Sequence record: PP400787
From: Escherichia phage FL23
DNA: 64,000 nt
Strand: one strand, 5' to 3'
The notes under the pieces: model-generated
Seen by the model: only the letters and a program-made list of their open reading frames with translations
Database searches by the model: none
Told to the model about the DNA's origin: nothing
Shown: one piece after another, positions 2,585-53,530 of the stretch
Numbering within the stretch: position 1 is the stretch's first letter
Layout of the letters: every line of letters starts with the position of its first letter
Translations under genes and position numbers: made by a program

Positions 2585-5500
2585 TTATTTTAACAATGAT
2601 TTGACTAATTTTTTAAGCTCTTCAATCTCTGACTTAAGTTCCGCAATTTCTGTAGTATGTTCATTTATTGCAGCTGTATTTAAACCAATTACACCGTTAT
2701 AGTTCAAACGAAGTAAAGCTTCGCCATCAGGGTCACCTTCAACTAATTCTGGTAAAATAGCTTGAACTTCTTGGGCTATCAAACCGGCGTTAGGTTCCCA
2801 TTTCTGATTGCCTTCTTCGTCCGTTCCACGTTTCTGCATATAAGTGTAACCGTTAATTTTAGAAAGCTTCTGAGAAGCATTTTCAAATTTAACAAGGTCT
2901 TTTTTAACACGAATATCAGAACGGACATAAACATCACGGACAAACGTTGAATAACTATCATTTGCCTGAACGAGATGCCCATGAGAAACGATAGCTCTTC
3001 CAACTTCTGTCCAAAAAGCACCGGTTGAATCCCAAAGCCCAGGATGAGATTGATAGCCTGCTCCCCAGTTTGCAATATGTACACCATTGGCAACCATGTT
3101 AATTCGCCCATCACCACCATGAACTAATCCGGTATCATTATCACCAATAACAAGACATGGTCCAGTCCACGCCGGGTCACCACCGCCAGCCGATAATCTT
3201 GCTCCGGCTTTAACCATGTCAGGAACGTACATGTTTCCATTATAGTGGAATTCGAAGATAGCTTGTGGGTCGGAACCGTTTTCCTGATTACCTACACGAA
3301 TAATACCTTGTGCCCAGTTATTAGGAATGCGTCGCATACCAAAATCAACACCAGATACGTATCCTTCATTCGTAATAACAGATTTTCCTTTGATAATTGG
3401 ATAATAACTATCATTACCGACGTAGCCAAAATCCACAAATATCGGAGCTTCCTGGCGCCATTGATTTCCCCAATCGCCGGCCTGGTGACTGGTCCAGACA
3501 GAGCCATTAATAAAAAGTCGGTCCCTATTAAAATTAAAAGTGGCAGACCCTTCCGGGTTTAAAGCAATATCACCACCATTATTAACATATATGCCTGATC
3601 TATTTTGGAAACTATAAAACGATATGGCATTATCAGCACCACCATTACCTACATACCAGTTATCAACGCCTGCTTTTTGTCCTTTCAAATAGCCAGATTC
3701 GGTTGCCGCGCTATTAATAACGATGGCATCAGAGTTTGCATTAAGAGTTAAGCGACCTGTCAGCGTATCGCCTTCTTTTGAAACACGGCTATAGACAGCA
3801 CCAAGAAGATTGGTTATATCACCGGAAGAATTAAACGTTTTCCAGATATCAGACCAGATGTTACCATTGCGACCAATAGTAGCTTCACCACCACCAACCT
3901 GGACATTATCAGGGAAGTTAACAGTACCGTCTTGATTAAAACGAGACGTATGGCCTTGTGATCCATCTTCTTTCAGATGATGAATAACGAATGTACCCGA
4001 ATTAATTTCAGTACCTAAAGACCAAACGGCTTTACCGTTTAAAAACTTCTGTTTAACAATAGGATAATATTTGCTTACAGCATCATCATCGATTTCCTGG
4101 AAAATAGGAGCCGCTTGAACATATTGAATATCATAACCACCAGCGCCTGCGCCATGACCAGTAAATTTAATATAGCCGTTTGCTGCGAACGTATTGTAAC
4201 TTGATTGTAAATCTGGAATAGTAACTTTACCAGTATCTAAAGCCATACTAAACGGGCGAAGTGGACCGATATCACCATTTTTACCTTCACCATAAGCAGT
4301 TGGAATAATATGAAGACTTCCTTCTGAACGTCTAAAAATAGCTCCATAATCTGCATTCCAAATGCGAAGAGCATTCACTGCTCCAGATGAAATTTCGCCT
4401 GTTGTGTGAACTCCCCTATTTCCAGCAGTAACACCAGATGATTCAAATGAACCGTTAACGTTCATTTCTACTTCACCTGTTGTAAGTCTTTGAATATAGC
4501 TCATCCAACTAGTTGCATCAGAAATTTCCATGACATTTTTACGATTACCTACACTAGGATTAGTAAACGTATTACCCCAAACAGAAATTGTCATATTATC
4601 AACTGAACTACTACCAGTTGTGTTACCTCTAAACAACAGTGTAGAAGCATTATTTATACCATCGATATTAACAGAACCACCAATAACGTCAATATTACCA
4701 GGAGTAACTAACAAACCGCCATGAGTATTAATGTTTGTAGTACCCTTACCACGGAAATAGTGATGATAATTACCGCCTTGATAATATCCTAAAAGAGTCT
4801 GACCATCTCCAAACGCGTTATTATCGTGGTATGTCACTACAGTAGCAAGAGCATAATTTTCAGTTGGAGGAGTAGTTAAATCGGTTCCGTTAGTAGAATA
4901 TCCAGCTACAAATTTTCTTAGGCTAGTTGTTTCGCTTGGACTAAATAAAAACGTTTTTGTGCCATTGTTAACACTGAAATAATATCCGTCTTGATGCCAT
5001 TTAAATCCAGTATCATTATCTCCTAAAGCAATTGAGGACGTTCCTAATTCAGAATATCCTTTAGGGCCGCCTGGGGTGCCTATAGAAATAGAATGACCCG
5101 CTTTCAATCCACCGGACCATGTAAACGACCAAAGATAAGCGTCAAGTCCATCACCTGCATACCAAGTTATCCCATCATTGTCTTTAACCTCATGAAAAAT
5201 ACCTGCACCTACGGCATTACGCATGACACGAAGATGATTAATAGCAGTAGTGCTTTCAGATAATGGGGTGTTATTTGCTAATGAATAGATATCATAATCT
5301 CCTGCCTTCTTCCCGTTTGTAATAACTTTGTCGGTCAGAATTTGTGGAGACGAAATAGATTTCCATGCTGATACTTCAGGTGAAGTAAATAGGCCACTGC
5401 CTGAAAATGCATAAGTGCTTTCGCTACCAGCGGCGTAGTCTTGAACCCTGATATTAAGTACTTGTGTAGTTAAACCATCATTAGCCGGGGAATAAATGAT

Positions 5501-17251: not shown

Positions 17252-17271
17252 AATAACGCGTGGCGGAAAAT

Positions 17272-17619
17272 ATGAATTTTAATTATTACCCTATTCTATT
17301 AGAAAAAGACATGAAACAGCCAAAATGGCAAGGTCCTCAGTTTATTAAAGGTGTCTATCAATTAGTAGTTCCTAAAGACAAGATTTATAGCAGTTGTTTC
17401 ACTGAATCCGCTTGCAGTATTTTCGGTAATAGTTCTCCGTATTGGAATTTTGACATAAAGCTGGATAGAAATATCGATATTTGGTTGAAAGCTATGGATA
17501 TTGGTAATATCACGTTTGATGAGAATAATTATCATATTATTGGTCGCTTTTCCAAACGCGGTAAAGAATTATATTTCACGCCTGAAATTGAGAGAAAATT
17601 TGATGCTAAACCGTATTGA
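17272..17619 (+). CDS. hypothetical protein (115 aa) in an insertion between frd and td
   Basis: ATG 17272 (ORF track GTG 17260); no recognised domain. Confidence 0.5.
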   Translation: MNFNYYPILLEKDMKQPKWQGPQFIKGVYQLVVPKDKIYSSCFTESACSIFGNSSPYWNFDIKLDRNIDIWLKAMDIGNITFDENNYHIIGRFSKRGKELYFTPEIERKFDAKPY

Positions 17620-17663: not shown

Positions 17664-18212
17664 ATGAAACAATACCAAGATTTAATTAAAGACATTTTTG
17701 AAAATGGTTATGAAACCGATGACCGAACAGGCACAGGAACAATTGCTTTGTTCGGTACTAAATTGCGTTGGGATTTAACTAAAGGTTTTCCTGCAGTAAC
17801 AACTAAGAAGCTCGCCTGGAAAGCTTGCATTGCTGAGCTGCTTTGGTTTTTATCGGGAAGCACAAATGTCAATGATTTGCGATTAATTCAACATGATTCG
17901 TTAATCCAAGGCAAAACAGTTTGGGATGAAAATTACGAAAATCAAGCAAAAGATTTAGGATACCATAGCGGTGAACTTGGTCCAATTTATGGAAAACAGT
18001 GGCGTGATTTTGGTGGTGTAGACCAAATTATAGAAGTTATTGATCGTATTAAAAAATTGCCAAATGATAGGCGTCAAATTGTTTCAGCATGGAATCCAGC
18101 TGAACTCAAGCAGATGGCATTACCGCCTTGTCATATGTTCTATCAGTTTAATGTGCGTAATGGATACCTTGACCTTCAGTGGTATCAACGATCAGTAGAT
18201 GTTTTCTTGGGT
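17664..18212 (+). CDS. td: thymidylate synthase, exon 1 (183 codons)
   Basis: MKQYQDLIKDIFENGYETDDRTGTGT...; exon ends ...gttttcttgggt, intron starts taattgaggcctgag. Confidence 0.9.
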
Positions 18213-19228
18213 TAATTGAGGCCTGAGTATAAGGTGACTTATACTTGTAATCTATCTAAACGGGGAACCTCTCTAGTAGACAATCCCGTGCTAAATTGTA
18301 GGACTGCCCTTTAATAAATACTTCTATATTTAAAGAGGTATTTATGAAAAGCGGAATTTATCAGATTAAAAATACTTTAAACAATAAAGTATATGTAGGA
18401 AGTGCTAAAGATTTTGAAAAGAGATGGAAGAGGCATTTTAAAGATTTAGAAAAAGGATGCCATTCTTCTATAAAGCTTCAGAGGTCTTTTAACAAACATG
18501 GTAATGTGTTTGAATGTTCTATTTTGGAAGAAATTCCATATGAGAAAGATTTGATTATTGAACGAGAAAATTTTTGGATTAAAGAGCTTAATTCTAAAAT
18601 TAATGGATACAATATTGCTGATGCAACGTTTGGTGATACATGTTCTACGCATCCATTAAAAGAAGAAATTATTAAGAAACGTTCTGAAACTGTTAAAGCT
18701 AAGATGCTTAAACTTGGACCTGATGGTCGGAAAGCTCTTTACAGTAAACCCGGAAGTAAAAACGGGCGTTGGAATCCAGAAACCCATAAGTTTTGTAAGT
18801 GCGGTGTTCGCATACAAACTTCTGCTTATACTTGTAGTAAATGCAGAAATCGTTCAGGTGAAAATAATTCATTCTTTAATCATAAGCATTCAGACATAAC
18901 TAAATCTAAAATATCAGAAAAGATGAAAGGTAAAAAGCCTAGTAATATTAAAAAGATTTCATGTGATGGGGTTATTTTTGATTGTGCAGCAGATGCAGCT
19001 AGACATTTTAAAATTTCGTCTGGATTAGTTACTTATCGTGTAAAATCTGATAAATGGAATTGGTTCTACATAAATGCCTAACGACTATCCCTTTGGGGAG
19101 TAGGGTCAAGTGACTCGAAACGATAGACAACTTGCTTTAACAAGTTGGAGATATAGTCTGATCTGCATGGTGACATGCAGCTGGATATAATTCCGGGGTA
19201 AGATTAACGACCTTATCTGAACATAATG
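18213..19228 (+). mobile_element. group I self-splicing intron in td (1016 nt) carrying I-TevI
   Basis: P1/IGS gcctgag pairs with exon end cttgggt; core motifs gtagggtcaagtgactcgaaa and atatagtctgatctgcat; ends ...ctgaacataatg. Confidence 0.9.
18344..19081 (+). CDS. I-TevI: I-TevI GIY-YIG homing endonuclease (intron ORF)
   Basis: 245 aa; GIYQIKNTLNNKVYVGSAKDFEKRWKRH; C-terminal Zn finger and DNA-binding domain. Confidence 0.9.
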   Translation: MKSGIYQIKNTLNNKVYVGSAKDFEKRWKRHFKDLEKGCHSSIKLQRSFNKHGNVFECSILEEIPYEKDLIIERENFWIKELNSKINGYNIADATFGDTCSTHPLKEEIIKKRSETVKAKMLKLGPDGRKALYSKPGSKNGRWNPETHKFCKCGVRIQTSAYTCSKCRNRSGENNSFFNHKHSDITKSKISEKMKGKKPSNIKKISCDGVIFDCAADAARHFKISSGLVTYRVKSDKWNWFYINA

Positions 19229-19540
19229 CTTCCATTTAATATTGCATCATATGCTGCGTTAGTTCATATTGTAGCTAAGATGTGTAATCTTATCCCAGGA
19301 GATTTGATATTTTCTGGTGGTAATACTCATATCTATATGAATCACGTAGAACAATGTAAAGAAATTTTACGTCGTGAGCCTAAAGAACTGTGCGAACTTA
19401 AAATTGATTGGCCTATAGAGTTTGAAAATTGTGACACCGAAACACAGCTTTACTGGTTAACTGAATACATGAAACCGAAAGATTTTATCCTTGAAAATTA
19501 TGAATCGCATCCGGCAATTAAAGGGAAAATGGCAATATGA
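19229..19540 (+). CDS. td: thymidylate synthase, exon 2 (103 codons; spliced product 286 aa)
   Basis: In-frame continuation [21 protein letters not shown]...; frame verified across junction. Confidence 0.9.
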
Positions 19541-19800
19541 TTTTACGATTTAAAGATACTTCTGGCGTTGTTCTTTTTACACTTCCTAACCCAAGCGAGT
19601 TAGAAGTTCCAGGACCAGAACAGCCTATTATCATTTATGGTAAAAAATATTATACTCATAAAATGACTCGTGAGTATTTTGATAATAAAATTTCCACAGT
19701 TAAAACTTCTTCAGATTGTTACTATGATATTACTGTATTAACGGAAAAACAATATGACGAATTATCAACGCGCGGGCCGTCTATGCCAGGTAGTGAATAA
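19537..19800 (+). CDS. hypothetical protein (87 aa) between td and nrdA
   Basis: ATGA overlap with td stop. Confidence 0.5.
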
Positions 19801-20080
19801 ATATAAATCCGACTTTGATGTTAATATTCACCGTGGTACATTTTGGGGAAATTACGTCGGTAAAGATGCTGGCAGCCGGGAGGCTGCCATTGAATTATTC
19901 AAAAAAGATTTTATACGTCGAATTAAATCCGGAGAAATAACTAAAGCACATTTAGAGCCTTTACGTGGAATGAGGCTAGGATGCACATGTAAACCAAAGC
20001 CGTGTCATGGTGATATAATAGCTCATATAGTTAACCGATTGTTTAAAGACGATTTTCAAGTTGAGGACTTATGCAATTAA
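19754..20080 (+). CDS. DUF4326-like protein (C-terminal [12 protein letters not shown] signature)
   Basis: Motif recognition: WGNY... and L.C.C.P..CHGD; overlaps upstream ORF by 47 nt. Confidence 0.5.
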
Positions 20081-21504
20081 TTAATGTTATCAAAAGTAGT
20101 GGTGTTTCTCAGAGCTTTGACCCGCAAAAAATTATTAAAGTTTTATCTTGGGCAGCTGAGGGAACATCAGTAGATCCTTATGAATTATATGAAAATATTA
20201 AATCATATCTCCGTGATGGAATGACCACTGATGATATTCAGACTATTGTCATTAAGGCCGCTGCGAATTCTATTTCGGTTGAAGAACCTGATTATCAATA
20301 TGTAGCTGCACGCTGTTTAATGTTTGCTCTTCGTAAGCATGTTTATGGGCAGTATGAACCACGTTCATTTATTGACCATATTTCTTACTGTGTAAATGAA
20401 GGTAAATATGACCCTGAATTATTGTCAAAATATTCAGCAGAAGAAATTACATTTTTAGAATCAAAAATTAAGCACGAACGGGATATGGAATTTACTTATT
20501 CCGGGGCGATGCAATTAAAAGAAAAATATCTAGTTAAAGATAAAACCACTGGTCAAATTTATGAAACTCCGCAGTTTGCATTTATGACTATTGGAATGGC
20601 ACTGCATCAAGATGAACCTGTTGACAGATTAAAACATGTTATTCGTTTTTATGAAGCAGTATCTACTCGACAGATTTCACTGCCAACTCCTATTATGGCT
20701 GGTTGCCGTACTCCAACTCGACAGTTTAGTTCATGCGTTGTTATTGAAGCAGGTGATTCGCTGAAGTCTATCAATAAGGCTTCTGCTTCAATTGTTGAGT
20801 ATATTTCTAAACGAGCTGGAATTGGCATTAACGTTGGTATGATTCGTGCTGAAGGTTCTAAGATTGGCACAGGTGAAGTGCGTCATACTGGCGTTATTCC
20901 TTTTTGGAAACATTTTCAGACTGCTGTTAAATCATGCTCACAGGGTGGAATTCGTGGCGGCGCTGCTACTGCTTATTATCCTATTTGGCATTTGGAAGTT
21001 GAAAATCTTCTCGTTTTGAAAAATAACAAAGGCGTAGAAGAAAACCGTATCCGTCATATGGATTATGGCGTCCAGCTGAATGATTTGATGATGGAACGTT
21101 TTGGAAAGAACGACTACATCACTTTGTTCAGTCCACATGAAATGGGTGGCGAACTTTATTATTCTTATTTTAAAGACCAAGACCGTTTCCGTGAATTGTA
21201 CGAAGCAGCAGAAAAAGACCCTAATATTCGTAAAAAGCGTATTAAAGCTCGTGAACTATTTGAATTGCTCATGACTGAACGTTCAGGAACAGCAAGGATT
21301 TATGTACAGTTCATTGATAATACGAATAACTATACTCCGTTTATTCGTGAAAAGGCGCCTATTCGTCAGAGTAACTTGTGCTGTGAAATTGCTATTCCAA
21401 CAAATGATGTGAATAGCCAACAAACCCGTTTAATCAAAATTAAGAAGTCGGATGTAGCTAAGTTTTATGAAGCTAATCCTGGCGGTATAATTCAAAGCAA
21501 ATAA
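20071..21504 (+). CDS. nrdA: ribonucleotide reductase large subunit, N-terminal piece (nrdA-a)
   Basis: ATP-cone; FSSCVVIE (Cys225 equivalent); SNLCCEIAIPT (Asn/Cys/Glu active site); then 28 non-conserved codons to stop. Confidence 0.85.
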   Translation: MQLINVIKSSGVSQSFDPQKIIKVLSWAAEGTSVDPYELYENIKSYLRDGMTTDDIQTIVIKAAANSISVEEPDYQYVAARCLMFALRKHVYGQYEPRSFIDHISYCVNEGKYDPELLSKYSAEEITFLESKIKHERDMEFTYSGAMQLKEKYLVKDKTTGQIYETPQFAFMTIGMALHQDEPVDRLKHVIRFYEAVSTRQISLPTPIMAGCRTPTRQFSSCVVIEAGDSLKSINKASASIVEYISKRAGIGINVGMIRAEGSKIGTGEVRHTGVIPFWKHFQTAVKSCSQGGIRGGAATAYYPIWHLEVENLLVLKNNKGVEENRIRHMDYGVQLNDLMMERFGKNDYITLFSPHEMGGELYYSYFKDQDRFRELYEAAEKDPNIRKKRIKARELFELLMTERSGTARIYVQFIDNTNNYTPFIREKAPIRQSNLCCEIAIPTNDVNSQQTRLIKIKKSDVAKFYEANPGGIIQSK

Positions 21505-21549
21505 AGTACACAGACCGTTAATAAATAATCCATAACAAGAGGAAAAGTT

Positions 21550-22260
21550 ATGGATTATTTTAAAATTTACAATAACCTTATTTCTAAAGCTAAGAATAGA
21601 AAATTAGATTGCTATACCGAATCACACCATATTATACCTCTGTGTATTGGTGGTTCTGATACAAAGGAAAACCTGGTAGATTTGACACCAGAAGAGCATT
21701 ACATAGCTCATCAATTATTAGTAAAGATATATCCAGATAATCATAAATTGATATTTGCCGCTAATATGATGTGTGTTTATTCTAAAGATAATATTGAACG
21801 AAAGAACACCAATAAACGCCATGGGTGGCTTAGAAGAAAATTGGCTATTTCTGTATCTGAAAATAATAAAGGCAAACCAGCTTGGAACAAAGGTATTCCT
21901 ATGTCTCCAGAAGTTAAATCTCGACTTCAAACATCTTGGGTGTTTACATTTCCGGATGGTCATGAGGAAATTCATCGAGGTCTTAACGAATTTTGTAAAG
22001 AGCATAATTTAAATCCATCTGCAATGTCAGCCGTTTGTAAAGGTAAACGGTCGCATCACAAAGGATTTAAGTGTAAGAAATTGGATAAGATTTCAGAGCT
22101 TGATAATTTAGTTTTCGTCAGTAAACCTCATCCAAAGGGATTAAAACCCCATAACTTAATTGCTGTAAAAATAAACGGTATAGAATATCAATCAATACAT
22201 CGAGCATCTAAAGCTTTAGGAATTACTAGAAAAAAGGTAGAAGAATTAAATGAATATTGA
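21550..22260 (+). CDS. HNH homing endonuclease inserted within nrdA (MobE-like)
   Basis: CYTESHHIIPLCIGGSDTKENLVDLTPEEHYIAH HNH motif; SD GAGGA; stop overlaps nrdA-b start. Confidence 0.8.
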   Translation: MDYFKIYNNLISKAKNRKLDCYTESHHIIPLCIGGSDTKENLVDLTPEEHYIAHQLLVKIYPDNHKLIFAANMMCVYSKDNIERKNTNKRHGWLRRKLAISVSENNKGKPAWNKGIPMSPEVKSRLQTSWVFTFPDGHEEIHRGLNEFCKEHNLNPSAMSAVCKGKRSHHKGFKCKKLDKISELDNLVFVSKPHPKGLKPHNLIAVKINGIEYQSIHRASKALGITRKKVEELNEY

Positions 22261-23239
22261 TTATGAATTTGTAGATGAATTTTACGAAGATGATGAGTAT
22301 ACTACAATAAAAGTTATTGAAAACAAGGGAGAAGTGGGGCTTTGTACTCTCTCTGCATTCGTACTAGATAATTTTGACTGGCAAGACCAAGATAAAATTA
22401 ATGAATTGGCAGAAGTTCAAGTTCGTGCTCTTGATAATCTTTTGGATTACCAAGGATATCCAGTTCCTGAAGCAGAAAAAGCTAAAAAGCGTCGTAACCT
22501 TGGTGTAGGTGTTACTAACTATGCAGCTTGGCTGGCAAGTAACTTTGCTTCTTATGAAGATGCTAACGATTTAACACATGAACTATTTGAGAGATTACAG
22601 TATGGACTCATTAAAGCATCCATTAAGCTCGCCAAAGAAAAAGGACCTTGCGAATATTATTCAGACACTCGTTGGTCTCGAGGCGAACTACCTATCGACT
22701 GGTACAATAAAAAGATTGACCAAATCGCAGCTCCAAAATACGTTTGTGACTGGTCGTCGCTGCGGGAAGACCTTAAGCTCTTTGGCATCCGTAATAGCAC
22801 ATTATCAGCACTTATGCCATGTGAGTCATCTTCCCAAGTTTCTAACAGTACAAACGGTATCGAGCCTCCACGTGGACCGGTAAGTGTTAAAGAATCAAAA
22901 GAGGGTTCATTTAATCAAGTTGTTCCGAATATTGAGCATAACATAGACCTTTACGACTATACATGGAAATTAGCTAAGAAAGGTAATAAACCTTATCTTA
23001 CGCAGGTAGCTATTATGCTGAAATGGGTATGTCAATCGGCTTCAGCGAATACATATTATGACCCACAGATTTTTCCAAAAGGAAAGGTTCCAATGTCAAT
23101 AATGATTGATGATATGCTATACGGATGGTATTATGGCATTAAAAATTTCTATTATCATAATACCCGCGATGGTTCTGGTACTGATGATTATGAAATAGAA
23201 ACTCCAAAAGCAGATGATTGTTCATCCTGTAAATTATGA
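22250..23239 (+). CDS. nrdA: ribonucleotide reductase large subunit, C-terminal piece (nrdA-b)
   Basis: Own ATG; resumes at GLCTLSAF (second active-site Cys) and runs to the C-terminal DDCSSCKL redox tail. Confidence 0.85.
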   Translation: MNIDYEFVDEFYEDDEYTTIKVIENKGEVGLCTLSAFVLDNFDWQDQDKINELAEVQVRALDNLLDYQGYPVPEAEKAKKRRNLGVGVTNYAAWLASNFASYEDANDLTHELFERLQYGLIKASIKLAKEKGPCEYYSDTRWSRGELPIDWYNKKIDQIAAPKYVCDWSSLREDLKLFGIRNSTLSALMPCESSSQVSNSTNGIEPPRGPVSVKESKEGSFNQVVPNIEHNIDLYDYTWKLAKKGNKPYLTQVAIMLKWVCQSASANTYYDPQIFPKGKVPMSIMIDDMLYGWYYGIKNFYYHNTRDGSGTDDYEIETPKADDCSSCKL

Positions 23240-24848
23240 TATAATTACCACAAGGATGTGGTTAACTAAGAATAACGCTATGTTTGATAATATATACAAA
23301 AACGGAAAGTTTCTTCCATTTGGAGAAGAAAAACTTAAATCTAGACTAACAGAAGAAGATAAAGCTCTTCTAACTGATGGAATAGATTTTAAGCTCAATG
23401 TGTTCCAAATTATGGAAGGCATTGACATTAACGATCTAAAATGTGCAGTTTGTGGAAATTTCATTTCTCTGAAAACGGCAAAGAAACGTGTATTTCCAGC
23501 AACATGTAGTAAATCCTGCGCAGGGATATTTTTCGCGGATAAGAGAATTCAAAGCCGTGATACAAATTTTGGCGGAAAAGAAAAATATAAAAAATATTTG
23601 TCTGAACTTCAACGCAAAAATTCTTTAGAAAAATATGGAACAACTCATCAAAAAATTTCAAGAAATAAAAATAGAAAAACTTTAATTGAACGATATGGGG
23701 TAACGCATAATTCACAATTAGAAAGTGTGAAAGAAGCGAGAAAAGTTATAGAAAACGGTAAATCAGTTGATATTCTGAATTCTAGAAAATCTCGCGAAAA
23801 ATCTAAGAAGACTAAATTAAATTGGACTGAAGAATATAAGGCATCGTTATATTCATCTATAGGAAAATCTATTAAAAATAACGGTCATATTAATCATGAT
23901 ATACTAGATAAAATCAATTACAAAATTTCTATAGAAGAACTACAACAATTAGCAAATTGTTCTCGGATGACGGCTTATAGAGCTCTTTCATCCAAAGGAC
24001 TAATTGACGTTCATTATACTCAAAGTTCTATAGAGCAATTCATTTTAGATCTAGGATTTGATTGCGTAGAAACTAGAAAAATTATTCCTCCGTATGAATT
24101 AGATATTTACATTCCTGAGAAAAAATTGGCTATAGAATACGATGGAATTTATTGGCATTCTAGCGGGTCAAAGGAAACAGATAAAATTAAAGAAACTTAT
24201 CATTTGATGAAGACAGAGATGTGTGAAGCACAAGGAATTCAATTACTTCACATCTTCGAAAATGAATGGATTGATGATACAAAAAGAGAGATCTGGAAAT
24301 CCATTATAAAGCATAAATTAGGATTATCAGAAAGAATACCAGCCCGAAAATGCAAAGCGCGTTTTGTTAATAAGGATGAGGCAAAAGAATTTATTAATAA
24401 GAATCATCTTCAAGGATTTTGCTCGGGAGCTCATACGTATAAAGGACTTTATTACAATAATGAGTTAGTTCAAATTATTTCTATCGGTAAATCTAGATAT
24501 AGCTCAGGTGATGAACTTTTAAGGATGTGTTCAAAATTAGGGATTTGTGTTGTAGGAGGAGCCTCAAAATTATTAAAAGGAATTAATTGTCTATCTTATG
24601 GCAATCGAAGATGGTGCAGTACATTATCAAATGTTTATGACTCTGTCATGGAATTTAGTCATATCTCTGAGCCGTGTTATTGGTATGTCGATAAAGGAGA
24701 GGTATTTCACCGCTCGAGCTATATGAAACATAAGCTTAAAAACAAGCTTAAAAATTATGATGATACAATAACTGAAGTAGAAAATTGTTATGCAAATGGT
24801 CTTAGAAGAATCTGGGACTGTGGAAATTTAGTTTACAGGACAAAATAA
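23214..24848 (+). CDS. large multi-domain putative nuclease (Zn ribbon, repeated YG(T/V)TH motifs, Vsr/DUF559-like core, C-terminal domain)
   Basis: CAVCGN...CSKSC; EKYGTTHQ/ERYGVTHNSQ repeats; LAIEYDGIYWH...LLHIFENEW; start ambiguous (23214, 23256 or 23280). Confidence 0.55.
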   Translation: MIVHPVNYDIITTRMWLTKNNAMFDNIYKNGKFLPFGEEKLKSRLTEEDKALLTDGIDFKLNVFQIMEGIDINDLKCAVCGNFISLKTAKKRVFPATCSKSCAGIFFADKRIQSRDTNFGGKEKYKKYLSELQRKNSLEKYGTTHQKISRNKNRKTLIERYGVTHNSQLESVKEARKVIENGKSVDILNSRKSREKSKKTKLNWTEEYKASLYSSIGKSIKNNGHINHDILDKINYKISIEELQQLANCSRMTAYRALSSKGLIDVHYTQSSIEQFILDLGFDCVETRKIIPPYELDIYIPEKKLAIEYDGIYWHSSGSKETDKIKETYHLMKTEMCEAQGIQLLHIFENEWIDDTKREIWKSIIKHKLGLSERIPARKCKARFVNKDEAKEFINKNHLQGFCSGAHTYKGLYYNNELVQIISIGKSRYSSGDELLRMCSKLGICVVGGASKLLKGINCLSYGNRRWCSTLSNVYDSVMEFSHISEPCYWYVDKGEVFHRSSYMKHKLKNKLKNYDDTITEVENCYANGLRRIWDCGNLVYRTK

Positions 24849-25523
24849 TGAGTACAGTTTTTAATACTAAACAGGTCGATGTTTTAAAAGAACCTATGTT
24901 TTTTGGTTCAGGTCTTGGTATTGCGCGTTATGATATTCAACGGCATCGAGTATTTGAAGAACTTATTGAACGTCAGCTCTCGTTTTTCTGGCGTCCTGAA
25001 GAAGTAAACTTGATGATGGATGCTGCACAGTTTAATAAGCTTCCTCAGTATCAACAAAATATTTTTACTAATAATCTGAAGTATCAATCATTACTTGATA
25101 GTATTCAAGGTCGTGCGCCGTCTGCTGTACTTATGCCATTGCTTTCAGACCCAAGCCTTGATACATGGGTTGCTACATGGACTTTTAGTGAAACTATTCA
25201 CAGTCGTTCATATACTCATATCATGCGAAATCTTTATACTGATCCGTCAAAGGTATTTGATGAGATTGTATTAGATGAAGCTATTATGAAACGTGCTGAA
25301 TCTATCGGTCGTTATTATGATGATGTTCTGACTAAAACCCGTGAATGGGAAAATGCTAAAGAATTTGTAGAACTAGCTAAAGAATCTCCTGATGCCGACT
25401 TTCGTTTAAACCGAGCTATTAAACAAGAAGCCGAAGCTAAACGTGCTTTAATGAAATCTCTTTACCTCTGTTTGCACGTTATTAATGCCTTAGAAGCTAT
25501 TCGTTTTTATGTATCTTTTGCGT
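24848..25523 (+). CDS. nrdB: ribonucleotide reductase small subunit, exon 1
   Basis: LKEPMFFG...RYD...QLSFFWRPEEV...WAFSETIHSRSYTHI...FYVSFA; 5' splice site inferred after gcgt (P1 gcgu/gcgc). Confidence 0.8.
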
Positions 25524-26115
25524 AAAATGCGCCTTTAAACGGTAACGTTTATCGAAAACTCCTTTAATTGCTGGAAAGTCCTTTATAGGAAAACTAGCAG
25601 CCAAGGTTTTGCTTGCACCTTTAATTAGTATAATATGATTATACTTTTAAGAGGATGCACAATTGAACTATAGAAAAATTTGGATAGATGCTAACGGACC
25701 TACCTAAAGATTCTGATGGAAGACCATAAGAAAAGAACATCAGCAAAAACATTAGAAATGGTTAAGAATGGGACCCATCCTGCACAAAAAGAAATCACAT
25801 GTGATTTCTGCGGTCACATTGGTAAAGGTCCTGGATTTTATCTAAAACATAATGACAGATGTAAATTAAATCCAAATAGAATTCAATTGAATTGTCCATA
25901 TTGTGATAAGAAAGATTTATCACCATCAACATATAAACGATGGCACGGCGACAATTGCAAAGCAAGGTTCAACGACTAGTCTTCGGACGTAGGGTCAAGC
26001 GACTCGAAATGGGGAGAATCCCTCTGGGATTGTGATATAGTCTGGTCTGCATAGTAATATGTAGCAGTTCATAAGAGAACGGGTTGAGAATTAGCGAGCT
26101 CAATCGAACATAACG
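25524..26115 (+). mobile_element. group I intron in nrdB (about 592 nt; boundaries inferred, +/- a few nt)
   Basis: Core motifs gtagggtcaagcgactcgaaa and atatagtctggtctgcat shared with the td intron; splice restores FYVSFA-C-TFNF...MEGNAKIM. Confidence 0.75.
25716..25979 (+). CDS. intron ORF, likely a truncated I-TevIII-like endonuclease remnant (Zn-finger region only, 87 aa)
   Basis: CDFCGH...CPYCDK...WHGDNCKARF; no complete HNH/GIY-YIG catalytic motif seen. Confidence 0.55.
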   Translation: MEDHKKRTSAKTLEMVKNGTHPAQKEITCDFCGHIGKGPGFYLKHNDRCKLNPNRIQLNCPYCDKKDLSPSTYKRWHGDNCKARFND

Positions 26116-26618
26116 GTACCTTTAACTTCCATAAAAACATGGAAATCATGGAAGGTAATGCCAAGATTATGAAGTTCATTGCACGTGATGAGCAGCTTCA
26201 TCTTAAAGGTACACAATATATTATTCGTCAACTTCAATCTGGTACTGATGGCGATGAATGGGTTAAAATTGCTCAAGAGTGCGAGCAAGAAGCAGTTGAT
26301 ATTTTCATGGAAGTTAACCGCCAAGAAAAAGATTGGGCAGTTCATTTATTTAAAGATGGCGATGTTCCTGGATTAAATACAAATAGCATGTGGAGCTTTA
26401 TTGATTACTTAACTGTATCTCGTATGAAACAGTGTGGTCTTCCATGCCCAATTACCGATGCTCCGGTTAAACACCCATATCCTTGGATTCGTGAATATCT
26501 TAATTCTGATAATGTTCAATCCGCGCCACAAGAAGTAGAACTGTCATCTTACCTTGTTGCGCAGATTGATAATGATGTTGATGATAAAGTTATGATGAGT
26601 TTTAAAAAATACTTTTAA
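26116..26618 (+). CDS. nrdB: ribonucleotide reductase small subunit, exon 2
   Basis: ...MEGNAKIMKFIARDEQLHLKGTQ...SSYLVAQID; aligns with class Ia NrdB C-terminus. Confidence 0.8.
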
Positions 26619-26622
26619 GGAG

Positions 26623-26644
26623 TGGGCCGCAAGGCCCATTTTAT
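26623..26644 (+). terminator. terminator-like hairpin after nrdB
   Basis: gggcc-gcaa-ggccc followed by attttatt. Confidence 0.6.
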
Positions 26645-26645
26645 T

Positions 26646-28233
<1,588 letters not shown>

Positions 28234-52912: not shown

Positions 52913-53530
52913 TTATGCCTTACTAAATTTGCCTTTAGAATCTCTTTTCATGAGACGACCTTTAATAAATCCGTCGGGAATAATACCGTCTGGTTGTATT
53001 AATTTATTTATTGCGCCATTATTGACCCAAAAAGTTCCTGTGGTAGTCGGTTTGACTTTACATCCTTTTCTGGACTTTCTATTAGGATGAACCATCCCTT
53101 TTACAAATCCTTCTGGAACAAGTTCTCCAGGCTTAATAAAAATATTTTTAGTTCCATTAGTGTAACAAGTTGTACCTAATACCGTGCCCGGTGAGTTTTC
53201 AAATCTCTTAGCGGAAGATTCTTTCATCTTTGCTATAACCTCTGTAGTCATAACAATTCCACCAATTCCGCCAGGTTTCATATTATAATAATTTTTGCTT
53301 TTTATTATTTCAGAAGTTATAATTTCTTCTTCATACATGTACGCTTCTTCGGAAGTTTTAAACTCTTTTAGTATTGTTCTAGAGAAATTGTTTTCACCAT
53401 ATTTCTTTATGGCCTGCTGAATTGCCTTACCGGAACCAAGGTAACCATCATTCAAGTCATCAGTAGAGTGTTTTCCTATATACTTTTTACCATTTATTAG
53501 ATTTGTTGTTTCATATACAAAGTGGTACAT
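52913..53530 (-). CDS. segD: GIY-YIG homing endonuclease (Seg-like, likely segD)
   Basis: HFVYETTNLINGKKYIGKH; duplicated C-terminal NGxxNxxIxPGExxPEGFxKG motif. Confidence 0.7.
   Translation of the reverse strand: MYHFVYETTNLINGKKYIGKHSTDDLNDGYLGSGKAIQQAIKKYGENNFSRTILKEFKTSEEAYMYEEEIITSEIIKSKNYYNMKPGGIGGIVMTTEVIAKMKESSAKRFENSPGTVLGTTCYTNGTKNIFIKPGELVPEGFVKGMVHPNRKSRKGCKVKPTTTGTFWVNNGAINKLIQPDGIIPDGFIKGRLMKRDSKGKFSKA

Follow-up and report, generated by a model that had tools for sequence, protein, structure and literature searches.

Why should the thymidylate synthase (td) and ribonucleotide reductase (nrdA and nrdB) genes in a T4-like phage be crowded with endonuclease genes, and how can genes so invaded keep working? 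The question is raised by positions 17,664 to 26,618 of a 64,000-nt stretch of DNA from Escherichia phage FL23 (sequence record PP400787), the whole of which is called the window here. A preliminary description of this sequence had counted five endonuclease-type elements within 9 kb and had taken them for a hotspot of selfish-element invasion. Our analysis shows that the 17.6- to 26.6-kb region contains four homing elements in the td-nrdA-nrdB block, namely, the td intron with I-TevI, a MobE cassette inside nrdA, a Hef-like gene between nrdA and nrdB, and the nrdB intron. All five endonuclease-type open reading frames (ORFs) are present as located, but four fall inside these coordinates and the fifth, denA, lies just outside. 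The hotspot holds for the four elements, each of which is present in some phages and absent from others whose flanking genes are 94 to 98% identical, and the families guessed at first (GIY-YIG, HNH, and PD-(D/E)xK-like) were broadly correct. Very probably, the four are independent homing elements, each of which couples a site-specific nuclease to a means of keeping the host gene functional.

An 11-kb query around the region matched Escherichia phage FL44 (PP400790.1; a Tequatrovirus from pig faeces in Denmark) with 100% identity, with lower-coverage matches in about 1,000 other T4-like phage records. The FL44 record annotates here thymidylate synthase in two pieces, ribonucleotide reductase alpha and beta in two pieces each, two "homing endonucleases," and several hypothetical proteins. 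In phage T4 (NC_000866), our reference for gene order, the genes run frd, td with I-TevI, nrdA.2, nrdA.1, nrdA, mobE, nrdB.1, nrdB with I-TevIII, denA, and rnlA. The window resembles T4 in this gene order, in td and nrdB introns that are 98 to 99% identical, in having an endonuclease gene in the gap between nrdA and nrdB, and in denA and rnlA downstream. T4 differs in that its nrdA is continuous, in that the intergenic position holds a 141-amino-acid (aa) HNH MobE plus nrdB.1 instead of the 544-aa Hef-like ORF found here, and in that it is without a 119-aa ORF between frd and td. Features of the window lie on the plus strand unless stated otherwise.

The interruption of nrdA is a 913-nt mobile cassette (21418-22330), delimited by DNA and protein alignment to T4, which replaces residues P450-D451-A452 of the 754-aa T4 NrdA; Aeromonas phage Aeh1 has the same architecture at the same site. 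Upstream lies nrdA-N (20071-21504; 477 aa, the equivalent of NrdA-a), which is 96% identical to T4 NrdA residues 1 to 449, and downstream lies nrdA-C (22250-23239; 329 aa, the equivalent of NrdA-b), which is 94% identical to residues 453 to 754; neither half shows a frameshift relative to T4 NrdA. The cassette first adds 28 residues to the C terminus of nrdA-N and closes it with a stop codon; a spacer of 45 nt comes next, then the gene for an HNH protein of 236 aa, and last the codons for 27 additional residues at the N terminus of nrdA-C. Thus, the host part of nrdA-N ends at 21417 and is followed by a basic C-terminal tail, QQTRLIKIKKSDVAKFYEANPGGIIQSK, coded by 21418-21501, and by its stop codon at 21502-21504, while nrdA-C begins at an ATG at 22250 that overlaps the end of mobE by 11 nt and opens with an acidic N-terminal tail, MNIDYEFVDEFYEDDEYTTIKVIENKG, coded by 22250-22330. 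The tails begin with QQTRL and end with NKG/EVG (the slash marks the junction), and their isoelectric points are 10.0 (C-tail) and 4.05 (N-tail), compared with 9.9 and 4.05 in Aeh1. The split falls between the motif NLCCEIA in the N-terminal half and GLCTL (Cys32) in the C-terminal half, with the counterparts of E. coli Cys439 and Cys462 on its two sides. The two NrdA polypeptides, predicted at about 54 and 38 kDa, would be expected to bear the peptides LIKIKKSDVAKF and EFYEDDEYTTIK.

The protein within the cassette is a free-standing MobE-type HNH homing endonuclease (21550-22260; phrog_655, 4e-59). It matches the Pfam family I-HmuI_NUMOD-like (PF22083) above threshold (1.6e-09), and its middle part (residues 76 to 175) aligns with the DNA-binding part of I-HmuI (PDB 1U3E). 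The HNH motif, HH..N..H, aligns with McrA, and residues H26, H27, N41, H50, and H54 are invariant in comparison with the MobE proteins of T4 and Aeh1; the Pfam HNH match itself is below threshold, at 18.2 versus 21.4 bits.

An HNH gene placed "inside nrdA," as it had been described, might be expected to lie within a group I intron or an intein, the removal of which would make NrdA continuous again. The size of the insert, about 913 nt, is typical of an ORF-containing T4 intron, and a related metagenomic nrdA-N carries an intein elsewhere in the gene. An Rfam scan of the 16- to 29-kb segment (E of ≤1) gave no intron match at nrdA, which is weak evidence, since the same scan missed the genuine nrdB intron. 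Against removal at the RNA or protein level, only 45 nt of the insert are noncoding, and each nrdA half has a signal of its own, a stop codon in nrdA-N and, in nrdA-C, an ATG coupled to the mobE stop. The reading frame that an intein would have to keep open is broken by that stop codon and the spacer, and Pfam matched no Hint or intein domain to the HNH protein or to the nrdA halves. In Aeh1, moreover, mass spectrometry of the mature proteins revealed the corresponding tails, and activity depends on them (PMC3045599). We rejected the intron and intein readings because the tails are conserved in the manner of coding sequence and because intein motifs are lacking in the nrdA halves and the HNH protein, and we consider such a removable insert extremely improbable. 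Judged from sequence, the interruption is an Aeh1-type genes-in-pieces cassette, neither intron nor intein; the HNH gene is where it had been placed, but it sits in no intron or intein and splits nrdA into two translated genes.

The coding character of the tails emerges from comparison across the cassette family. A search of 5.8 billion proteins for MobE relatives yielded a graded series of full-length relatives at 50 to 82% identity, and five metagenomic relatives were looked up at their loci; all five lie inside a split nrdA, at the same point. Across the seven cassettes then available (window, Aeh1, and five metagenomic), the tail cores are better conserved than MobE itself. The C-tail has invariant L, K, K, and F residues in the motif LxKxKKSxVxxF, and the N-tail has invariant E, Y-E-D, and E-Y-T-T residues (YEDxEYTT); both are kept as protein, with changes mostly in third positions. 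Over the 17 codons of the N-tail core, variable sites by codon position number 8, 2, and 15, as is expected of a translated, selected peptide rather than of intron RNA. A scan of IMG/VR with the MobE alignment returned Aeh1 as the only full-length relative, because the patterns had been drawn from the N-terminal domain.

Expression of mobE may also be controlled from within the cassette. A 14-bp RNA hairpin (21523-21560) places the Shine-Dalgarno sequence in the loop and the AUG of mobE (21550) in the 3' arm. Its minimum free energy is -19.1 kcal/mol (z, -4.4), and none of 200 shuffled sequences folds as well. The hairpin is kept in five of the seven cassettes, with compensatory changes at two pairs; Aeh1 and the metagenomic cassette L049 use different sequences. 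It is likely to act as a translational repressor of mobE.

The genes-in-pieces reductase of Aeh1 was reportedly described by Friedrich in 2007 and by Crona in 2011. There, mobE splits nrdA into nrdA-a and nrdA-b, whose products reassemble to an active reductase, (a/b)2-beta2, in which the basic C-tail and acidic N-tail are essential and the active-site cysteines are Cys431 and Cys31 (PMC3045599). The window cassette resembles it closely: in Aeh1 the ORFs are of 473, 237, and 323 aa, the spacer is of 46 nt, mobE and nrdA-b overlap, and the insertion site is the same. The Aeh1 MobE is 45.8% identical over 96% of the length and is the closest relative of the window MobE outside the Tequatrovirus group. 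The C-tails read RLIKIKKSDVAKF in the window and MLFKVKKSEVDKF in Aeh1, and the N-tail cores read EFYEDDEYTT and EVYEDEEYTT, respectively. Aeh1 differs in belonging to another genus and in the neighborhood of the genes, nrdAB not being beside td. An RNA structure is reported to inhibit MobE expression in Aeh1 (legend of Fig. 5 in PMC3045599); the Aeh1 hairpin pairs with the Shine-Dalgarno region, whereas the window hairpin sequesters the AUG. The Aeh1 tails had no database matches in 2010 and now belong to a family. A 2022 preprint mentions, as unpublished, "Aeh1 and several others" with MobE in nrdA and conserved extensions (bioRxiv 10.1101/2022.08.31.505936), and because of this earlier mention the window cassette is an undescribed example of a known arrangement and not a new arrangement. 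A further parallel is the T4 gene 39/60 topoisomerase with mobA, in which a Mob-type HNH gene splits an essential enzyme gene with tail-like extensions (PMC3045599; bioRxiv 10.1101/2022.08.31.505936); there the host gene is a different one, and the mobA element carries a translational bypass cassette, whereas none was seen in the window. As a modest speculation, the mobE-plus-tails unit may be a self-contained class of mobile element, with its own protein-level substitute for splicing, that would home into intact nrdA across phage genera.

The distribution of the cassette bears on how it spreads. A MobE-type HNH gene in nrdA was found in 34 phage records, about 20 at 93 to 100% identity and 14 at about 89%, mostly from Tequatrovirus phages of E. 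coli, Shigella, Yersinia, and Salmonella. Between FL44 and phage HY01, the C-tail, the spacer, and the first 350 nt of mobE are 98 to 100% identical, while the flanking nrdA is 94 to 97% identical. A 200-nt block (21900-22100) coding for the DNA-binding region of MobE is only 69% identical to that of HY01, which suggests module exchange between endonuclease alleles. The mosaic pattern seen between FL44 and HY01 would fit recent lateral spread together with such exchange. HY01 has no gene between nrdA-C and nrdB.

Several of the looked-up relatives showed further occupants of the same genes. In one metagenomic relative (L050, 607-2451, ENA contig ERZ14207129; and L051), nrdA has both the mobE split and an intein in its N-terminal half, the latter with PT-HINT/Intein_splicing matches, so that two different selfish elements reside in one gene. 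Locus L047 has, besides the nrdA-internal gene, a second Mob-type HNH gene (4169-4810) between nrdA-C and nrdB, and locus L046 has a GIY-YIG endonuclease gene (211-939), on the opposite strand, between td and nrdA. Elsewhere, a full-length MobE relative of 33 to 35% identity lies beside or inside uvsW in many T4-like phages (for example, Yersinia phage PST and Shigella phage SP18); some of these phages carry the annotation "uvsW-A," which hints that further helicase genes may be split by Mob-type endonucleases.

The third element of the block is a free-standing Hef-like homing endonuclease of 544 aa (23214-24848), which matches a homing-endonuclease PHROG over its whole length (7e-152) and occupies the slot of T4 mobE plus nrdB.1. 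In Acinetobacter, Yersinia, Campylobacter, Pseudomonas, and other phages, its homologues bear the name "Hef-like homing endonuclease," and at 95% identity or more it was found in 16 phage records. The annotated start overlaps the end of nrdA-C by 26 nt, and the stop overlaps the nrdB ATG at 24848. Probably, the true start is M23 (23280), because the homologues are 519 to 522 aa long and residues 1 to 19 model poorly. The protein is built of a zinc ribbon, DUF7487 helical repeats, a Vsr-like "EDxHD" nuclease, and a Mom-like GNAT-fold domain. Phage U5 is also said to have a Hef, reportedly described by Sandegren in 2005. The window enzyme resembles it in being free-standing and in lying between nrdA and nrdB in place of mobE, and the U5 enzyme cleaves nrdB, according to a review (PMC2988022).

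The only PDB sequence match of Hef is I-Bth0305I (3R3P), with an E value of 0.03 when the single sequence was searched and of 3e-4 with the family profile, and Hef-type enzymes have been placed in the Vsr-like EDxHD family that it typifies (PMC3239194). Residues D297 and H315 of Hef align with the catalytic D196 and H213 of I-Bth0305I, and D297, E308, and H315, together with the four cysteines of the N-terminal zinc ribbon, are invariant in 40 family members. The two proteins share a Vsr-like catalytic core with conserved Asp and His; I-Bth0305I (Taylor 2011) is, however, an intron-encoded protein of 266 aa with NUMOD and helix-turn-helix modules, whereas the window Hef adds the zinc ribbon, the DUF7487 repeats, and the Mom-like domain. 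The original assignment of this ORF as a putative PD-(D/E)xK nuclease was right at the superfamily level, and it can be made more precise as a Hef/Vsr-like EDxHD nuclease with a Mom-like domain.

The last ~175 residues of the model (~370 to 544) form a conserved domain of GNAT fold. Against a viral structure library, the first named stand-alone match of this domain after the Hef family itself is the Mom protein (E, 1e-07), and the Hef family profile matches Mu Mom weakly (E, 0.017). In that weak alignment, Mom Arg101 and Tyr149 correspond to the nearly invariant R437 and Y475 of Hef and Asp139 corresponds to Asn; the roles of the residues specific to the Mom family have been described (PMC7261163). 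The Pfam Mom model matches 7 of the 40 Hef family members, all below threshold, and some GenBank annotations of homologues read "nuclease/acetyltransferase." The closest specific relative of the domain thus appears to be Mom of phage Mu, a DNA adenine methylcarbamoylase. No discussion of a Mom-like domain in Hef-type nucleases was found in the searchable literature. We speculate, as an idea that is unlikely to be right as it stands, that Hef-like enzymes combine a Vsr-like nuclease with a Mom-like domain that binds acyl-CoA and acts on DNA adenines, either chemically marking the target site in the carrier phage's own DNA against self-cleavage, so that one polypeptide would serve as a homing element of restriction-modification type, or flipping bases for target recognition.

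The two remaining elements are group I introns known from T4. The td gene consists of exon 1 (17664-18212; Pfam Thymidylat_synt, 9e-65, profile positions 1 to 175; exon/intron junction identical to that of T4) and exon 2 (19229-19540; profile positions 176 to 266), which together give 183 plus 103 codons, or 286 aa, as in T4 thymidylate synthase. The 1,016-nt intron between them (18213-19228) is about 99% identical to the T4 td intron, from which it differs by one indel and two substitutions, and both junctions are kept (GGGT/TAATTG and AATG/CT). Rfam Intron_gpI recognizes only its 3' half (18950-19180; 42.5 bits; E, 3.5e-08), and, since the model is interrupted by the ORF, the gathering score of 50 is not reached. 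Within the intron lies I-TevI, an intact intron-encoded GIY-YIG homing endonuclease (18344-19081), which matches all three of its Pfam domains above threshold (GIY-YIG, 2e-18; I-TevI_ZnF, 1e-20; I-TevI_DNA-bd, 3e-32) and differs from the T4 gene at one synonymous position, the protein being identical. The proposed td intron with a GIY-YIG I-TevI is confirmed by these domains and by the identity with T4; given near-identity to a studied element, the intron would be expected to self-splice and its product to cleave intron-less td.

In nrdB, exon 1 (24848-25523; Pfam Ribonuc_red_sm; junction matching T4) and exon 2 (26116-26618; Ribonuc_red_sm positions 177 to 271) together comprise 392 codons and flank a 592-nt group I intron (25524-26115) with 98% identity to its T4 counterpart. 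Four small indels separate the two genes, all of them intronic, and the junctions are kept (GCGT/AAAATG and ACG/GTACC). In one hairpin of the intron, T4 pairs CTGCATG with CATGCAG and the window pairs CTGCATA with TATGTAG, a G-C to A-U double change that preserves pairing. When the intron is compared with that of T4, an additional A is seen 3 nt ahead of the 3' end (CATAACG versus CATACG; 26085-26115), and the terminal G is kept. The intron encodes an 87-aa remnant of I-TevIII (25716-25979; phrog_27406, 3e-61; positions 184 to 269 of the 269-position phrog_12324 profile). It corresponds to the C-terminal zinc-finger/DNA-binding part, the last third of an intact 269-aa I-TevIII such as that of RB3, and the HNH half is absent; the truncation is the same as in the defective 97-aa ORF of T4, and a further 2-nt deletion makes the ORF ten codons shorter. 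An nrdB intron with the remnant of a zinc-finger endonuclease, as predicted, is thus what the gene contains.

How would four such elements persist in essential genes? We propose that, in a mixed infection, the nuclease would cut an allele lacking the element and recombinational repair of the T4 type would copy the element together with flanking markers. The td and nrdB introns would splice at the RNA level, so that their host genes would keep working. The nrdA cassette would bring its own stop, start, and oppositely charged tails, and NrdA would be made as two reassembling polypeptides, while Hef, lying between genes, would leave the host genes undisturbed. The nrdB intron, with its own nuclease lost, would probably spread only by hitchhiking on a neighbor's cut, for which Hef is the candidate; such dependence has been shown with T4 MobE (PMC2790892). 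The denA product has no part in this scheme.

Several points weigh against four working homing elements. Nuclease activity, target sites, homing, marker exclusion, and reassembly of the split NrdA are inferred, cleavage activity and marker exclusion from homologues studied in T4, U5, and Aeh1 (PMC2988022, PMC2790892, PMC3045599). In the nuclease domain of Hef, the Asp, the His, and one Glu of EDxHD map clearly, but the distal Asp (I-Bth0305I D222) has no confident alignment. The I-TevIII ORF is certainly defunct, as in T4. Rfam release 15 (Intron_gpI, E of ≤1) gave no match to the nrdB intron, whose status as an intron rests on identity with T4; Rfam misses this genuine T4-type intron, and its silence is therefore no evidence against ORF-containing phage group I introns. 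No divergent coconversion tract was found beside the nrdA cassette in comparison with T4, the flanks being about 98% identical with scattered synonymous changes. The clustering, finally, is statistically moderate, with P values of 0.01 to 0.02 and five ORFs in all.

The state of the I-TevIII remnant invites the suggestion that the region is a graveyard, with most ORFs inactive, nrdA reduced to a broken pseudogene, and the phage dependent on the reductase of its host. Decay is common in homing endonuclease genes once they are fixed, and the T4 nrd genes are not strictly essential; the remnant itself occurs both here and in T4. The other three nucleases, however, have intact catalytic motifs: I-TevI is identical in protein sequence to the active T4 enzyme, and MobE and Hef are full length with invariant catalytic residues. 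The nrdA halves have kept 94 to 96% identity to T4 NrdA without frameshifts, the split is maintained in 34 records, and purifying selection acts across distant cassettes on both the tails and the mobE hairpin. We regard a graveyard as quite improbable, and active elements with one defunct nuclease remain the reading that we prefer.

The presence and absence of the elements among related phages speak to their mobility. Counts among the about 1,013 phage records that match the region are 196 for the td intron, 117 for the nrdB intron, 34 for the nrdA cassette, and 16 for Hef. Only two or three records have the full set, namely, FL44, vB_Eco_F26, and, nearly, Manna. This polymorphism of each element among near-identical phages would fit homing. 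The nucleases might, alternatively, be kept mainly because they benefit the phage, for example, by shutting out or degrading co-infecting relatives or by amplifying loci, and not be purely selfish DNA. In T-even crosses, marker exclusion has been mapped to nucleases of this kind (PMC2790892, PMC2988022), SegB is reported in a 2026 paper to help in immune evasion through amplification of antidefense loci (PMC13096335), and Hef has its extra Mom-like domain. Patchy presence and absence among near-identical phages is, however, what selfish spread and loss would leave, not a conserved beneficial function, and nothing in the sequence speaks for a host-directed role. A mainly beneficial function therefore seems to us rather unlikely, though it deserves to be kept in mind, and homing by selfish elements is the reading retained here.

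It may be asked whether the density of these genes calls for explanation at all, since it could reflect chance or a reader's selection with no real hotspot. Within the window, four of the five endonuclease-type ORFs lie within 7.1 kb, for which P is ~0.02 under uniform placement and ~0.009 against the genome-wide density in T4 (15 per 169 kb). The ORFs are few, P depends on the null model, and the region was picked after inspection. Clustering is nevertheless modestly above chance, and in the remaining ~50 kb of the window the FL44 record annotates only one other homing endonuclease, a SegE-like gene. Against chance, the same slots hold other endonuclease families in other phages: mobE in T4, a GIY-YIG gene between td and nrdA (L046), a second Mob gene between nrdA and nrdB (L047), and an intein in nrdA (L050). 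Ribonucleotide reductase genes have been described as common endonuclease targets (PMC3045599, PMC3653736), and the td/nrd hotspot is textbook knowledge for T4, in which I-TevI, mobE, and I-TevIII occupy the same region. An accident of placement or of selection thus appears very improbable.

Three further ORFs of the window had been or might be counted with these elements. The first, denA (endonuclease II; 26622-27056; phrog_1111, 2e-65; Pfam GIY-YIG, 5e-06), is a GIY-YIG gene immediately downstream, as had been noted, but its inclusion among the selfish elements did not stand: it is a conserved core phage nuclease that degrades host DNA, its position is identical in T4 and Aeh1, and it was rejected as a mobile element. 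The second, the Seg-like GIY-YIG gene reported at 52913-53530, is real; it lies on the minus strand and is a SegE-like free-standing GIY-YIG endonuclease (Pfam SegE_GIY-YIG, 4e-09) that adjoins uvsW, as segE does in T4, and falls outside the cluster. The third is the 119-aa ORF at 17260-17619 between frd and td, two genes that overlap in T4. It matches phrog_1928, of unknown function, and occurs in 554 phage records, which makes T4 the exception; it has no Pfam match and no nuclease signature, and on these grounds and given its wide occurrence it was rejected as a sixth nuclease. One record labels it a putative homing endonuclease, without visible support. Scans of the region for promoters and terminators gave counts not above those in shuffled sequence.

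The components of this region are known: the T4 introns, the Aeh1-type split nrdA, and a U5-type Hef. The main interest lies in the portable, conserved tails of nrdA and in the Mom-like domain of Hef, which is a lead for biochemistry on Hef-type nucleases. For annotation, what appears in T4-like phages as "two nrdA genes plus a hypothetical protein" would represent one functional enzyme and two homing endonucleases. For phage therapy genomics, such elements may bias the inheritance of neighboring markers in mixed infections. The region displays three ways of sparing essential genes, namely, RNA splicing, intergenic placement, and the splitting of a protein into self-assembling halves. The recurrence of the split-nrdA cassette, with conserved tails, in coliphages, an Aeromonas phage, and uncultured phages supports a proposal made in 2010 for Aeh1, namely, that the tails are part of the mobile element and offer a general alternative to introns and inteins; with the phage of the window, this proposal could be tested in an E. 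coli system that is easy to handle.

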